Source: Candidatus Poribacteria bacterium
GTDB taxonomy: Bacteria; Poribacteria; WGA-4E; PCPOR2b
Direction: 5' to 3'
Length of the DNA stretch: 64,000 nucleotides
Assembly: GCA_965208325.1 (NCBI GenBank)
Contig: OZ242326.1
Location: forward strand, 1,632,001 to 1,696,000
Shown here in pieces: positions 24,001 through 33,000 of the stretch (positions are counted from its first letter, which is position 1; each line of letters starts with the position of its first letter). Position numbers: made by a program.

Positions 24001-27000
24001 GTGGTTCATACCGGAGTGCCGGAAGGTTCACTTCATTTGCGAGGTGATTGCCCCTCAAAAAACACTCATCCGAGAATTGTCGATTGCCAGCTACCAAGAA
24101 AACAGCGTGTTGACGACGAAGGCCGTTGATACATACATCTCCCGTATTTCGGAGTCCAAGGATTGGTTGGCGATTACTGAAGGTTCTACAGGGGAAGATG
24201 CGTTTATTAAATGCTGGGAGATTCTTCAAGATGTATTCTGGTGGCCGCCTACCCAATCTAACGCTTCCAATAGGTACGATGGGCCATCAAACCCATCCGA
24301 ACTTCTCAAACAACTCAGAGAGATTGCTCGAAAAGGACATCTGCAACACGCAGGCAAAGTTCACCGCTCTTATGGAGGCGCGGTCGGATTGATCTCTCGG
24401 CGCGGCACAAATCGACTTCGCTATGCTCCAAACGACACCTTCCTCAAAACCATGGTGGTCGCCAATGTTCGAGAACGTAAGGAATTTAACCAATTCTTAA
24501 GCGATCTCTACAGGCGGTATGGGCTAGTTTTTGGAGAGAAAGAAGCCTCGGATGCTCTTCCAACTAAAGCATTTGACCAGAAAGTCTTTCAAGCAAATAC
24601 CGAGCGTTTGGAACGACGACTTTCCAGCATGGGCATGTTGCGCCGCCTTTCCGACTCCTGCGCTTACGTCATAAATCCATTTGGGAAGGAACAAAAATGA
24701 CGACTGACCAACTGATTGGACAAGTTGGCGCAAGATATCTGCGAGTAAAACTTGATGAAGCTGACGACTCCGACGATACTGCTCGATACCTCATAGATCG
24801 GCTCTCGAAGGGACAGACCGCAGCCATTGCACGGGCGATATTGGCCGATGCAGTGCTTAGCGAAAAGGTTGAGATTAAGTTGCCAACTCGTTTCATGCAG
24901 GGGCAGAAGCTACCCGATTTGGTTCTGACCGAAGAAAGGGCAACATACTATCGTAATGCTCGATGCAGCAAGGCAGCTCTCTTACTCGCTACGACGGGTG
25001 ATGACGAAGCGCAATCGCTCAATCACCTCACCCCGATTGGTATTGCCCAGCTGATGGATAACCCCAATTTTTGGGTTGATGTTGCCTCAACAGATGCAAA
25101 TCTTTCGGAGAGTAATCAAAAATGGTGGGAGAAGGCGCTCAATGCGCTATTCCAGTTAAACATCTGCTCGCTAGCGCAGATTGCCCAGTACATTCTGCAA
25201 ACCCGCAACGCTATTGTCGATGATGGACACCCTGTTGTACATGCGCTTGACGCGGCACTACCGGCACTTCAAATTCCCAGAGGCACGGGGGATTTCAATG
25301 GAATTAGGGACAATTATCGAGGTCATACCGCCCAATGGCGGAGACGTTTCGAGTCTGCTCATCGCAAATATGCTTGTTACCTTCGCAAATATACCCCAAA
25401 CCAGACGCTCCTGAATGAGGATGAACTCACGGCGGCTTTCGCCGCGGCAAAGGATGCCATCCCCGAAAATTACCATTCTCTGATTGTGGCGTTCATCGGA
25501 GCCCCAACCGGGTGGAATTACCACGCCCAGGAATTGGCTGGATGTGAATGGAGCGTCGTTGGTCAACCGTTGTTTGAACGGCTGAAGCCAGAAAAGAAGA
25601 GTATTGGGGAACTGACTTTTGCATTCTATGATGAGCGTGAACCGGAACTTCTCACTGAATCCGAGCGGGATTATTTGCAGCGACTCAAGCGGCGCGGGAG
25701 ACTTCCAAAAAATGATGATGAAGAGGATAAAGAGTTTTACGAAGACCATCGAAATGAACTCAAGGAAGACCGCAAACTTAAGTCGTTATGGGACCGGTTT
25801 ATTTTCAAAACCCCGCTGGAGTCAGACGATTTCTTGGTTGGGCTAATACAATGCATCGAAAGACTTCTTGGCGCAAAATCGACCAGCGGGGAAACGCGAA
25901 TGACAATTCGTTGTGACCGTCGATCGAGAAAAGATCTCAGAGACCTCAACGTCGAGGCAGGGCTTTATTTTGCCACGCGCTATCGTGGATTGCCAACGTT
26001 GTTCGGACCGAAAGTAACTTGGGCACCGGAGTTCGATCAACTCTTTTCTTTTTCAGAATTGGTAGAAACTTGGCGTGGTGAAAGTGGTTCAAGACTGTGT
26101 GTTTCAACGGCGAAAGCATCGCGACAGATTAAATTCACGATCGAACTTAGTGCCCCAGATGATACTGCAAAGCACGCAACCCAACTTATTTGGGACTTTA
26201 ACCTTAATAGCATCACCACCCAATTTCACAGCGATTTTAATCGTCTTGTGGAACACCCGCTAGTCTTTTGTCATACAACGCGCGAGCCTATCAGTACCAA
26301 AGGCGAATTCCAACCCCTTGACCTTTCCAACGTGAAGTCATTTGGCCCGGCCTATGGAAAGGAGCGTGGTTCTTTTGTCTCCGTCTACACAGAGGACAAC
26401 GATGTCGCTGAAACATGGCTTGAAAATTTGAAAGAAGCAAAACACCAACACCTTCGGACCGACGACGATGCACAACAGATTCGGTCGAGATTTGAAGTCT
26501 TTCGCGCATCCTATGCCGCGGCAATTGCCGGATTCATGAAGCGTGGAGTGGCTTGCGCCGAACTGCTAGATCAGTTATCCGATTACGCGGAACTTTTGGA
26601 GACATTATGCCGCAACGCCAAAGGGGACCGTAATCGGGAGTTGCTCTTAAACCCACTTTTGAAAATCGGCGCTGTTACGGTGGATGGCGGACAGCTTGCA
26701 ACAGTTGTTACTCCGTGGAATCCGCTTCGCTTGGCCGCCATGGCAGTAAAGGCAAAACAAGTAGCAGAACTTCTTCAACGTTTGCTTACCGCTGAAGACC
26801 TAGCTTTTGGCAATGCAGAGCGATTCTATTTCCGCGAAATTGAAGAAGCCTTGGCGCATCCCTATTACCCTGAAGTTGTTATAGGTTGGGATCGCGGTGA
26901 ACCCAAACTGTTGTCACTGACCGATTTTGTGGGAGATTACAGTCTACACGAACACCCGGTTGTGACCGACGAGGCTAGCGATGGCACAAATGACAACCCT

Positions 27001-30000: not shown

Positions 30001-33000
30001 ACGCCATGAAAGCAGTCTACGCAGACAATAACGCCACAACTCCCGTTGCACCAGAAGTGATGGAAACAATGAAATTATACTTTGCGGATGCGTTTTACAA
30101 TCCGAGTGCAATCAGTGGACGGGCGTATGGCATTGATACGGCCATAGCTCAAGCCAGGCGGGCCGTGGCGGAATTTCTAGGCACATCAGACGCGAATGAA
30201 ATTGTCTTCACTTCCTGCGCGACCGAGAGCAACAACTGGGCAATTTTCGGAGCAACTCGGGGGAATCCTGAACGCCGGCACATTATCACATCGAAAGTAG
30301 AACACCCCTCCGTTTTGGAAACTTGCAAGTCAATAAATAAGAATGGGTATGATGTCACGTATCTCAAGGTAGATGGTGACGGCAACCTGAACATGAATGA
30401 ACTAATTGATGCCATCCGTAGCGATACGCTTTTGGTTTCGCTAATGGCGGCGAACAATGAGACAGGAGTAACATTCCCAGTTGACCGATTATCGGCTGCC
30501 GTGAAAGAGCAAGATCCGAACATAATCTTTCACACGGATGCTACCCAATATATTGGAAAGTTACCTGTTGACCTTAGCCGTGAGTTTGAACATATAGATT
30601 TATTGTCCTTTTCCGGTCATAAATTTCATGGGCCGAAAGGGATAGGTGGGCTTTTTATTCGTAAAGGCACTCCACTGGCGCCACTACTTTATGGCGGAAA
30701 TCAAGAAAATGGCCGCCGGAGCGGTACTGAAAATGTGCCAGGAATTATTGGCATGGCTGAAGCGTGCAAGCTAGCTGACCGTAACATCACGCGTGTGAAG
30801 AATGTGGAGACTCTACGTGATGAATTAGAGGGCGAACTGCTTGGCCTGGCCCCCACGGCTTTAGTAAATGGAGGAAATGCAAACCGCTTGCCCAATACAC
30901 TCAATATTGCATTCAAAGACATGGACAGTGAAACGCTTCTCCATCAACTGTCGATGGGCGGTGTATATGCTTCAAACGGTTCGGCGTGCTCCACAGGTTC
31001 GCTGGACTACTCTCACGTTCTATCGGCGATGCAAGTGCCGTATGATTACATTGCCAGCAGCGTACGATTTAGTTTTAGTCATCTAAATAGTTCAGAGGAT
31101 GTGAATATAATCGTGGAGAGGATGAAACAGATTCGAGGGTTGGGCTAGCCGAATCTTTCCAATACCTTGCTAATTCGCGGTGGATTTGCATGGTGAACTT
31201 AGGATTATGGTAGGTAAGATTTCGCCTTCGGAACCGTTTGCTGGCAACGATAAAGCCTACGAAGATAGAACCACATTCCGAATGCCCGCTAAATCAATAA
31301 GTCGTCGCCGATTGGAAAGAACTGGTCGGCGGCGCGAAGCAGATCCATTGATGTATTATGTTCAAAGGCTACAATCTCTATACGCTTCTGCTGCTGCTTT
31401 ATGGTTTCAGCAAGTGCGCAGAAATCCCCATCGCCGCTCGCCAGAATGACGACATCCAGAGCGTCCAGCCTTGAAACCACGTCTATCGTGATTCCAACGT
31501 CCCAATCCCCCTTTGCCGACCCATCCCCGCGCAGCCGCAAATCCTTACTCTTTATGGTATACCCGTTGTGTTCCAGAAGCGACAAGAAACCCGCTTGGTT
31601 AATTTCAGGGATTTGGACGACATACGCATACGCCAAAACCAGCTTTCGGGGACCAACGATGAGGTCGAGCAGCTTAATGTAATCCAGGCGTCCGGAGTAC
31701 CGGTCTTTTGCTGCATAGAACATGTTCTGTACATCAACAAAAACCCCGACGGCGGGTTGGTTTTCCGCTATACGCGTACGGGTTCCACCGCCAATCGCCT
31801 GTCTGTCAACAAAATTGTTTGAAATCCTTTCCTCTTCGTGCGTTATTACGACTCTCGAATTCCTGTGACTCTCCCGCAAATTAGCAAGATTAGCTTGGGG
31901 ATCCGAGCGATTCCGACCGATAATTTCCAGACTCCGGTAGGCGGCATTTTCAACGGATTTTAGTTCCAGCGCAAGCTGCGTTCTCTCTGCCTTAAGTTGA
32001 TGGAGGTCACCAAGTTGATTAGAAAGGTTTTGGACATCTTCACGAAGCGTTATATTTTCATGCTCTAGCTGCTCGCAACGGGATTCAATTTCCTCGTATT
32101 GATGCTGTTCGTGATCCTTTAATTGGCTGATTTCGCCGGCTAACTCTTGGAGTTGTTGTTTAAGTTCACTATTTTCGTGCTGCGACGCCGCCTGTTCACG
32201 CCGAAATTCATGAATAGTTTCGTGGAGTTCATCAATCTTTGCATTTTGCTCAGAAATCTGGTTTAAGTCAGGTTTAGCGTCCGGACTAGTTAACAAAGCG
32301 GCGCTGACGGCTTCGTCACCTACATCGCGGCTAGGCTGAGCATTCTCGAAGTCCATATCCGACGCCTGGGCGTCAGATTCTGCCGGTAAGCTTCGCGAAT
32401 CTACATTTTGGTTAGCTTCGTTAGAAATTGCTTGGGACTGTAGGAGTTGATCGTGCTGCGCAAGCAGCGTGACACCGTGCTGCTGCACATCGTCACGCGG
32501 ATTAATCAAGAGCGCCCAAATCATTGAGCCGAATTCCCCATCTTCCAAAAGTTGCGCCGCATCTCTCAAGTAGAGCCGAATCTCTTCGACATTCATGTAC
32601 TCTACCCGGCGTGCCGCTTGTTCCGCCTTTTTTACAAGCGACCAACTCACCAACTTTTCAATAATGGCTTTATCAAAGAATTCCGCCGCTAATGTTTTCG
32701 AAAGGGAATGCAATTCCTCCGATTCACTATGGATACCACATTGCTCCGCCAACGTCGTAATTTCTTGTCCGCTGAAGCAGTCATCAAGAATCCAAGCCAG
32801 ATGATGTGCGGGAATACGTACATTCACCTTTGGATAATCCTGAAACATGGCTAATCTCCAAAATGTGAGGGGTTAGGTGTAATCATTAATCCACAAGGAA
32901 AACAGAAGGGATTCAGAAAACGATTGATTCTGATAATCTTATTCATAAAGCCTACGCCGATCTCTGCATTCTTGCTGATAACTTTGCACCGATCCACGCC

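Follow-up and report, generated by a model that had tools for sequence, protein, structure and literature searches.

The window, meaning the whole stretch of 64,000 nucleotides that was analysed, lies on contig OZ242326.1 (C1 hereafter) of a Candidatus Poribacteria genome and contains a phosphorothioate defence island on its forward strand. The island includes sspB (13790..14788; PADLOC SspB, 349 bits), sspC (14792..18325; SspC, 1237.9 bits) and sspD (18330..19148; SspD, 378.6 bits), as well as sspF (21250..23127; SspF, 674.9 bits), sspG (23072..24700; SspG, 598.2 bits) and sspH (24697..30009). It also has an sspA/dndA-type cysteine desulfurase gene (30006..31148), whose product matches Pfam Aminotran_5 (245.2 bits) as well as PADLOC DndA (429.7 bits) and SspA (424.1 bits). 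All seven components of the SspABCD-SspFGH system, as represented by the PADLOC models, are present and contiguous, and nothing notable differs from that system; there is an extra gene between sspD and sspF (19337..21232), encoding a HATPase_c_3 protein (Pfam, 75.1 bits) with a restriction-enzyme-like C-terminus that also matches PADLOC REase_II (75.3 bits) and MzaB (57.3 bits).

SspH, the restriction-side component of the Ssp system, is a protein of 1770 amino acids that matches its PADLOC model (PDLC02806) end to end, with residues 1–1761 aligned to positions 1–1766 of the 1766-position profile at 2139 bits. It contains an FtsK/SpoIIIE-type P-loop motor domain (residues about 1521–1685, encoded at 29251..29751 on the forward strand), which scores 126.2 bits against PF01580 in six frames and 124.7 bits at the protein level. 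Whilst SspH has the motor (beta) domain of FtsK, it is ruled out as an FtsK, as no 4TM, alpha or gamma domain scores over its cut-off, and the NCBIfam FtsK model NF007615 gives 115 against a cut-off of 1566. The full-length model match and the neighbouring sspF, sspG and sspABCD genes assign the protein to SspH; the FtsK-type domain here serves a defence protein as its ATPase motor and is unrelated to cell division.

The survey's finding was that this is the only such domain in the genome, and that FtsK, ParB and a second GyrA/ParC-type gene are missing; both statements are borne out. A PF01580 search in all six frames of the single contig (4,707,648 bp) yielded 38 candidates; with every one of them scored, the SspH domain is left as the sole real FtsK/SpoIIIE motor domain. 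The second match, in a HerA/DUF87 protein of 518 amino acids, covers only the P-loop (25.8 bits). A further eight P-loop matches score lower still; scans of the seven strongest identify NACHT, Lhr, DUF4011 helicase, MoxR, DUF815, AAA_21 and UvrD proteins, and the eighth reaches 13.6 bits in a 253-aa ORF. The best FtsK_gamma match in the genome reaches 14.2 bits and lies outside SspH, FtsK_alpha is matched inside SspH only and below its cut-off (21.9 against 22.9 bits), and FtsK_4TM has no match over its cut-off in the four genomes of the genus, this one included. The survey had allowed for a diverged FtsK escaping the Pfam profile; a profile built on three FtsK sequences from the phylum itself still matched SspH alone. 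No match to ParB_N, the domain of the ParB that defines a ParABS system, was found in six frames of the genome at E≤10, and PF00521 has one real match, gyrA (C1:3113826-3115142), which leaves no second subunit for a topoisomerase IV. Many bacteria lack topoisomerase IV and ParB. FtsZ, FtsA, MinC, MinD, MinE, SMC, ScpA and ScpB, which had been listed as present, were verified in the genome; of the HerA-NurA pair also listed, HerA was recovered and its NurA neighbour is weak.

FtsK is regarded as the near-universal bacterial link of division, chromosome clearing and Xer activation. Its distribution was followed through 176 Poribacteria genomes (G-numbers, with G000 for that of the window; families f1–f11), of which 173 belong to the class of the window's genome and three to the basal families f10 and f11. 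Eight of the 176 match PF01580. True FtsK accounts for three of the matches, confined to f10 and f11, where it is complete in every genome (693–694 aa, with an N-terminal membrane segment and a motor of 223–231 bits) and is accompanied by a canonical ParB (124–127 bits) that is restricted to these genomes, G001–G003. The five matches within the class are none of them canonical, comprising SspH in G000, G026 and G027, a 954-aa protein with the central motor domain alone in G029 and a TraG/HerA-like protein in G015. No substitute from the FtsK superfamily is conserved, HerA_C/YjgR being found in none of the 176 genomes and DUF87 in 64, patchily even inside genera.

The 173 class genomes, like that of the window, are without FtsK, canonical ParB and topoisomerase IV. 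Loss of FtsK, which had been proposed for the phylum, holds for this lineage and fails for the phylum, as all three f10/f11 genomes keep FtsK and ParB. The class is well sampled, with many single-contig genomes, and since its sister families retain both proteins they provide a clean natural before-and-after comparison. The missing topoisomerase IV is no special trait, because nearly all of the 168 PF00521-matching genomes, FtsK-bearing ones included, have a single GyrA/ParC-type gene, and we read the class as never having possessed the enzyme. Nor is the loss of FtsK new, as the controls Synechococcus elongatus and Thermotoga maritima are also without a PF01580 match, and the available text of PMC7766704 places cyanobacterial ‘FtsK’ entries among YjgR/HerA-clade proteins. 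With cyanobacteria and Thermotoga as precedents for FtsK, the three absences per se are less striking than first thought.

What is new lies outside the window: 39 genomes from three families possess one vertically conserved Xer with an upstream dif-like site and an orphan gene. The Xer-family tyrosine recombinase of the window's genome (C1:1049398-1050300; 300 aa) scores 135.8 bits against PF00589, and its putative catalytic residues R145, K172, H247, R250, H273 and Y282, assigned by inspection, form an intact R-K-H-R-H/W-Y set that is invariant in 28 Xer sequences. A single copy, at 56–94% identity, is found in 38 other genomes (by family, f1 25/28, f2 11/11 and f3 2/7), and identity drops with taxonomic distance, which fits vertical descent. 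The protein falls under the NCBIfam cut-offs for XerC (197.6 against 335.15 bits; TIGR02224), XerD (188.2 against 329.6; TIGR02225) and XerA (180.5 against 220; NF040815). Amongst solved structures it matches XerA chains at 86.3 and 85.2 bits, XerD at 83 and XerH at 38, and thus appears about equally near to XerA and XerD and far from XerH. Its C-terminal tail reads ...TERDLxxTMxSIxWE, where the phylum's other Xer proteins end ...HPR(A/G). The survey had counted two Xer-like recombinases; only this one is conserved, the second (312 aa, 55.8 bits) has a truncated paralogue and looks accessory.

The dif-like site is a 28-bp palindrome, ATGTCCGATAA-TTAACC-TTATCGGACGT, at C1:1049148-1049175, 222 bp upstream of xer; its two 11-bp arms are inverted repeats that enclose a 6-bp centre. 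It recurs 108–222 bp upstream of xer in 28 of the 29 loci with full flanks, with near-invariant arms (columns identical in 26–28 of 28) and the centre (C/T)TA(A/T)(C/T)C. A genome-wide search allowing up to 2 mismatches found the pattern in 27/28 genomes of f1, 11/11 of f2, 5/7 of f3, 13/112 of f4 and 0/17 of f5–f11, and the reversed pattern, used as a control, in none. At this tolerance the site is not unique, with 1–12 copies per genome and three in G000 (the others at C1:2920841 and C1:2921909, with looser ones at 2883278 and 2902448). The conserved centre is seen only in the xer-adjacent copy, the centres of the other copies being variable, and nine genomes have the xer-adjacent site as their sole copy. 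Two extra half-sites are also conserved, one 14 bp past the core and one over the xer ribosome-binding site.

The gene dnaA (C1:3122083) coincides with the cumulative GC-skew minimum, and the plateau of the skew stops near 1.03 Mb, close to the site at 1.049 Mb. By hand calculation with rounded genome sizes, 0.43 of the chromosome or more separates xer from dnaA in 12 of the 14 f1 genomes that are single contigs, which puts the site in the region of the replication terminus. The gene is off the antipode in G031 (0.29), G043 (0.14), where it also lacks an adjacent site, and G024 (0.36, with gyrA as proxy for dnaA). The terminus is placed only roughly, since the GC skew, at 0.013 on the strand presumed to be leading, is both weak and irregular. 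Downstream of xer, 137–252 bp away in all 29 loci, lies an orphan gene for a protein of 130 amino acids (orf131), with the same phyletic pattern as xer (f1 26/28, f2 11/11, f3 3/7, elsewhere 0/129). Among 1.84 billion representatives its family is matched 8 times, and its comparison with solved folds gave no match at E≤0.001.

We lean slightly towards the view that dimers, and possibly catenanes too, are handled by the one Xer at its own dif-like site, independently of FtsK. The observed basis for this view is the absences, the conservation, the architecture of the site and its position opposite dnaA, from which we infer that the site-xer-orf131 unit may be an XerA-like dimer-resolution module. 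The recombinase would bind and recombine the 28-bp site, an event that would resolve chromosome dimers and that would need to run without FtsK, because the cell has none; the two half-sites and the orphan gene would be control elements. The survey had argued that Xer must work here without FtsK, as in archaea. The conserved site beside the single conserved xer, opposite dnaA, lends this idea direct support, and as a whole that interpretation is partly supported. A more far-reaching version, on the doubtful side, is that a self-contained terminus module (the palindromic dif core with two half-sites, the derived Xer and the orphan protein) replaces FtsK control, with the half-sites and the orphan licensing or restraining the Xer, a task that falls to FtsK-gamma in other bacteria; it would have arisen after the joint loss of FtsK and ParB at the base of the class and would be the first FtsK-free bacterial chromosomal Xer system.

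The class shows three FtsK-less states, namely XerC/XerD-like pairs, the derived Xer with dif-like site and orphan, and neither. The last is that of the largest family, f4, where FtsK is absent and this Xer occurs in 2/112 genomes, its partner gene in 0/112 and the site in 13/112; the module is therefore dispensable for FtsK-less life. The recombinases of the FtsK-less families f5, f8 and f9 have ...HPRA or ...HPRG tails like those of the FtsK-bearing basal genomes, which leaves room for an unrecognised activator. An FtsK analogue unrecognisable by sequence, be it a pump of FtsK/HerA type that has diverged strongly or a septal translocase and Xer activator of unrelated origin, would mean that the lineage lost only the recognisable gene and kept the function. 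Canonical-looking XerC/XerD tails persist in the FtsK-less G005, G013 and G017, one of which, ...RLRQQHHQFHPRG, recalls the RQ-QQ residues through which XerD contacts FtsK according to the available text of PMC5357621, and non-homologous replacements are beyond the reach of profile searches. However, four Pfam FtsK domains and the phylum's own FtsK profile lead to SspH alone, HerA_C is missing throughout and DUF87 patchy, and no 8-mer is oriented towards the presumed terminus by more than 0.77 (in G000 alone, without a control genome), which together make such an analogue unlikely.

It is similarly improbable that the site-xer-orf131 unit is a recombination module domesticated for some other purpose, such as moving or inverting small gene cassettes that the same sites flank, or autoregulated site-specific control. 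The multiple sites per genome, the two extra G000 sites flanking about 1 kb of small ORFs without Pfam match, the half-site over the xer ribosome-binding site and the NCBIfam description of the XerA model as ‘tyrosine recombinase/integron integrase’ would all suit such a role, but the Xer is single-copy with identity that follows taxonomy, in nine genomes the site beside xer is the only one, the conserved centre is limited to that copy, and its position opposite dnaA recurs in 12 of the 14 f1 genomes. Hardly credible is the explanation that FtsK and ParB sit in missing sequence. Completeness is 95.62%, circularity is not established as the contig ends show no overlap, and the relatives are mostly metagenome bins; yet canonical FtsK is found in 0/173 class genomes, dozens of them single contigs at 93–99% completeness, whilst the three basal genomes, more fragmented at 190–900 contigs, all show it.

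For FtsK-independent resolution by the single Xer a close parallel is archaeal XerA, which in Pyrococcus abyssi recombines dif without partners (Cortez et al. 2010, in the available text of PMC2958812). As far as the accessible parts of PMC2958812 and PMC5357621 describe, both systems have one recombinase in an organism without FtsK and a 28-bp site of inverted 11-bp arms and 6-bp centre in the termination region, and xerA and dif form one module in some archaea too; XerA chains in the PDB are also the best named matches to the Poribacteria Xer. Here, by contrast, the host is a bacterium, the XerA model stays below its cut-off, and the system includes two additional half-sites, an orphan partner that is conserved and, in many genomes, further copies of the site. 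The canonical XerC/XerD-dif-FtsK system belongs to the same family, has the same catalytic residues and also builds its site as 11-6-11, the arms ending on the inside in ATAA/TTAT, but differs from this one recombinase, which is under both equivalog cut-offs, has another tail than ...HPR(A/G), and is paired with a palindromic site without FtsK. Cyanobacteria share the absence of FtsK and a weak GC skew, with dif prediction unsuccessful according to the available text of PMC3025954, whereas here a dif-like site is identifiable and HerA-type proteins are not conserved.

Control of Xer without FtsK has been described for phage TLC XafT and for the cer/psi accessory sequences (bioRxiv 10.1101/2021.09.09.459576 and PMC5357621, in their accessible parts), where the licensing of Xer passes from FtsK to a small factor or to accessory DNA at the flanks; the same role is proposed for orf131 and the half-sites, with no relation of orf131 to XafT shown in sequence or fold. 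What licenses Xer in the absence of FtsK can be tested directly on a DNA fragment of 250 bp and two small proteins, and the class, many members of which keep an Xer gene beside its putative dif-like site near the terminus, is a natural test case for FtsK-free chromosome untangling. Single-recombinase systems are also found in bacteria, as XerS/difSL in streptococci and lactococci and XerH/difH in Helicobacter and Campylobacter. The Poribacteria Xer lies outside both subfamilies, because it scores 112 bits against XerS and 38 bits against XerH. In the portions of PMC5357621 and PMC3325230 consulted for these systems, difSL is 31 bp rather than 28 bp, and both systems depend on FtsK (PMC5357621), unlike the FtsK-less host here; XerS shares the genetic linkage of site and gene, and H. 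pylori, like the Poribacteria genome, is without topoisomerase IV.

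The open reading frame at window 24697–30009 (+) encodes 1770 amino acids and is matched from end to end by the PADLOC SspH model (2139 bits). Pfam assigns to it only an FtsK_SpoIIIE motor at the C-terminal end (residues 1521–1685, 124.7 bits) and the overlapping, weaker DUF87 and AAA_10. The surrounding phosphorothioate defence island is complete: sspB (window 13790–14788), sspC (14792–18325), sspD (18330–19148), a HATPase/REase-like gene (19337–21232), sspF (21250–23127) and sspG (23072–24700) precede sspH, and a gene for a DndA/SspA-type cysteine desulfurase follows it (30006–31148). 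With a full SspH match inside a complete Ssp island, the window feature is therefore an ordinary component of an established defence system; it is the lineage-level pattern of FtsK absence that merits experiment, together with a module at the terminus made up of a Xer recombinase gene, a dif-like site and an orphan gene. Directly beyond the island, on the opposite strand, lies a gene (window 31289–32848, -) whose product of 519 aa combines a long stretch resembling coiled coil with an NYN nuclease domain at the C-terminus (103.3 bits). An ORF of 167 aa, 8 kb from the island (window 37619–38122, -), matches the middle of Xer models only (~35 bits) and looks like a tyrosine recombinase that has been truncated.

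The window spans C1:1632001–1696000 of the genome, a single contig of 4,707,648 bp, 95.62% complete, the ends of which do not overlap. When all 38 candidates from a six-frame search with PF01580 were scored, SspH reached 126.2 bits, followed by a match of 25.8 bits to just the P-loop of a 518-aa HerA/DUF87 protein (C1:2926621–2928180) and then by eight weaker P-loop matches, down to 13.6 bits, the seven strongest of which are NACHT, Lhr, DUF4011 helicase, MoxR, DUF815, AAA_21 and UvrD proteins. FtsK_gamma has no real match in the genome (best 14.2 bits), FtsK_alpha is seen within SspH only and under the cut-off, and FtsK_4TM gave nothing over the cut-off among four genomes of the genus. A profile built from an alignment (A1) of three FtsK proteins from within the phylum also retrieved SspH as its sole match in this genome. 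ParB_N returned 0 matches at E<=10, and PF00521 one real match, gyrA (C1:3113826–3115142). The survey's finding was thus borne out as an observation: FtsK and ParB_N were not found, there is one GyrA/ParC-type gene and the sole FtsK-type motor resides in SspH. The absences of FtsK, ParB and topoisomerase IV are very probably real. FtsZ (C1:310338–311519), FtsA (at 4.049 Mb, C1:4049039), SMC, ScpA, ScpB, MinC, MinD and MinE are all present; of the HerA–NurA pair that had been listed with them, HerA is there while its NurA neighbour is weak (23.5 bits). The ftsZ gene (L080:1338–2519 in its locus) is isolated, flanked by genes for a DUF1932 protein and a carboxypeptidase, outside any dcw cluster and 3.7 Mb from ftsA.

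Across the phylum, PF01580 at E<=1e-5 finds a match in 8 of 176 genomes. A true FtsK is encoded by three of these, G001 and G002 of family f10 and G003 of f11, as proteins of 693–694 aa with an N-terminal hydrophobic segment and a full motor domain (223–231 bits), to which the NCBIfam FtsK model aligns with 447 bits over residues 205–690. Both families are labelled 'same phylum', meaning that they fall outside the window's class. The five matches inside the class are SspH in the genome under study, G026 and G027, a TraG/VirD4/HerA-like protein in G015, and in G029 a protein of 954 aa whose motor domain is central and which shows no further FtsK domain at 1e-5. As all five are non-canonical, a canonical FtsK is seen in none of the 173 f1–f9 genomes, many of which are single contigs of 93–99% completeness. 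The loss, which had been described as extending through a bacterial phylum, is consequently one of a class, since f10 and f11 retain FtsK. ParB divides in the same way, with strong matches (124–127 bits) only in G001–G003; weaker and patchy ones (22–75 bits) occur in 35 more genomes, and none in the genome under study. PF00521 matches 168 of the 176 genomes, nearly all once and basal families included, so that one GyrA/ParC-type gene per genome is usual across the phylum; the lack of topoisomerase IV is therefore ancestral and unrelated to the loss of FtsK.

No FtsK relative fills the gap consistently in the phylum. Three candidates were ruled out: the cyanobacterial-type substitute YjgR/HerA_C, matched in 0 of 176 genomes; HerA/DUF87, patchy at 64 of 176 and both present and absent within single genera; and a moonlighting role for SspH, which occurs in just 3 of the 173 class genomes. 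The proposal that such a loss would be new has precedents against it. Among the control genomes of the PF01580 search, Synechococcus elongatus and Thermotoga maritima have no match, and the loss of FtsK in a large bacterial lineage is therefore not new as a kind. Kono et al. did not succeed in predicting dif in cyanobacteria and remark on the weak GC skew there (PMC3025954). For Poribacteria themselves, a search of the literature on FtsK revealed no published report of its loss, and one on Xer returned only papers that, judged by title and the start of the abstract, are unrelated.

PF00589 identifies four tyrosine recombinase genes in the genome, just one of which, and not two as had been counted, is Xer-like along its whole length. 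This 300-aa protein (C1:1049398–1050300, +) scores 197.6, 188.2 and 180.5 bits with the models for XerC, XerD and XerA, all under the curated cut-offs, and among solved structures it is about as close to archaeal XerA (86.3 and 85.2 bits) as to Escherichia coli XerD (83 bits), with XerH far behind (38 bits). It occurs as a single copy, at 56–94% identity, in 38 other genomes (39 with this one); by family the counts are 25/28 in f1, 11/11 in f2 and 2/7 in f3, with weaker matches in 2/112 of f4 and matches of 29–36% in more distant families. In f1 and f2 the protein ends in ...TERDLxxTMxSIxWE. The Xer-like proteins of the FtsK-bearing G001–G003 end in ...HPRA or ...HPRG, as do those of the FtsK-less G005 (f5), G013 (f8) and G017 (f9) (loci L086–L090), one tail among the latter three genomes being ...RLRQQHHQFHPRG. 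XerD contacts FtsK through RQ-QQ residues, according to a review (PMC5357621).

Alignment of the flanks upstream of xer from 29 loci (full flanks, excluding one short locus, L063) disclosed one block kept in at least 90% of them, a perfect 11-6-11 palindrome. In the genome under study this dif-like site reads ATGTCCGATAA-TTAACC-TTATCGGACGT (C1:1049148–1049175). The arms hardly vary, around an asymmetric centre, (C/T)TA(A/T)(C/T)C; an extra half-site is set 14 bp outside the core, and another, 10–21 bp before the xer start codon, overlies the ribosome-binding site. The site is found 108–222 bp upstream of the xer start in 28 of the 29 loci, the exception being G043. A search of the flank downstream of xer for a conserved site showed just a promoter-like stretch for the next gene. 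When up to 2 mismatches were allowed, the pattern was found in 27/28 genomes of f1, 11/11 of f2, 5/7 of f3, 13/112 of f4 and 0/17 of f5–f11, and the reversed pattern, used as control, in none. A different 28-bp palindrome, ATGTCCAACAAATCTGTTTGCCGGACAT with its variants, is present in four copies within 450 bp (C1:2132915–2133364) and has outer arm bases in common with the dif-like site.

An ORF of 126–134 aa starts 137–252 bp after xer in all 29 loci, and its phyletic pattern is that of Xer (f1 26/28, f2 11/11, f3 3/7, elsewhere 0/129). Of 1.84 billion representatives just 8 match the family, which is essentially limited to this clade and has no Pfam match. The AlphaFold2 model is all-helical (pLDDT 84.1) and has no counterpart among solved folds at E<=0.001; short, weak matches to the ribbon-helix-helix proteins VapB, CdbA and Arc (E 4–7) are all that it yields. 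From its sequence pattern one might guess that the N-terminus is of this type. When Xer (alignment A2) and the orphan protein (A3) were modelled together, the predicted complex obtained a score of 0.00 and a mark of 0.32, which speaks neither for nor against binding.

The chromosomal position of the module can be gauged from dnaA (C1:3122083–3122568), which lies 8 kb from gyrA at the cumulative GC-skew minimum (3.11–3.14 Mb). From there the curve climbs to a plateau at ~0.03–1.03 Mb, on which it peaks at 0.69 Mb, and declines from ~1.03 Mb; the skew is weak (0.013). Between dnaA and the site at 1.049 Mb lies 0.44 of the chromosome. In 12 of 14 f1 genomes assembled as single contigs, xer and dnaA are 0.43–0.50 of the chromosome apart, a distance calculated manually with genome sizes taken to the nearest 0.1 Mb; G031 (0.29) and G043 (0.14) depart from this range. 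No probability is attached to the pattern, because related genomes are not independent. The gyrA–dnaA spacing is 7–10 kb in every f1 genome in which both were found, and with gyrA standing in for dnaA the values for three closed genomes of f2 are 0.45, 0.36 and 0.44. G043 (L049, C1:1932758–1936663) is also the one closed genome without the site beside xer; an exact copy lies at its C1:2950333, and a rearrangement looks to have split the module. Back in the genome under study, a second DnaA-domain gene (L074, C1:1361399–1361845, 146.7 bits) lies in a 386-aa ORF, and at 1.83–2.03 Mb the cumulative skew rises by ~6,700 within 200 kb, counter to the replichore trend, a rise for which an inversion or a cluster of genes biased to one strand could be responsible. 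KOPS-like oriented words, described for this genome alone and without a control, are headed by an 8-mer with 176 against 73 occurrences (0.71), and none has an orientation >0.77.

The most economical account of the module, and one we hold by a modest margin over even odds, is a XerA-like dif/Xer system that works independently of FtsK and whose recombinase gene is linked to its site, a linkage also seen in XerS/difSL. The interpretation given in the survey's finding is partly supported: the FtsK-independent Xer proposed there is plausible and gains a concrete candidate site, but the loss of FtsK is to be restricted to the class and has precedents. Resolution would have to be confined to dimers by some control, a role that might fall to the extra half-sites and the orphan protein, by analogy with the accessory sequences of cer and psi and with XafT (PMC5357621; 10.1101/2021.09.09.459576).

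Against this account, the site is multi-copy, at 1–12 per genome, and two further copies with different 6-bp centres (C1:2920841–2920868 and 2921909–2921936; L077:841–868 and L077:1909–1936) flank ~1 kb of small ORFs that no Pfam model matches, at a distance of ~5 kb from the NurA/HerA pair. By analogy with the pdif modules of Acinetobacter plasmids, such extra copies may be Xer-bounded cassettes; looser copies occur at C1:2883278 and C1:2902448. The weakness of the skew also counts against the FtsK-independent account, as does the retention of canonical-looking Xer pairs without FtsK in f5, f8 and f9. Family f4, with 112 genomes, has no module, yet FtsK is missing there too. A reading of f4 as devoid of any Xer was withdrawn, since another, shorter tyrosine recombinase turned up in 34 of the 41 genomes of f4 that were sampled. 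A search with the Xer of the genome under study at E<=1e-20 does not retrieve this protein, which scores 88–112 bits, often in ORFs of ~200–280 aa (for example G100:C1:3669004–3669519) and may be the family's own Xer substitute.
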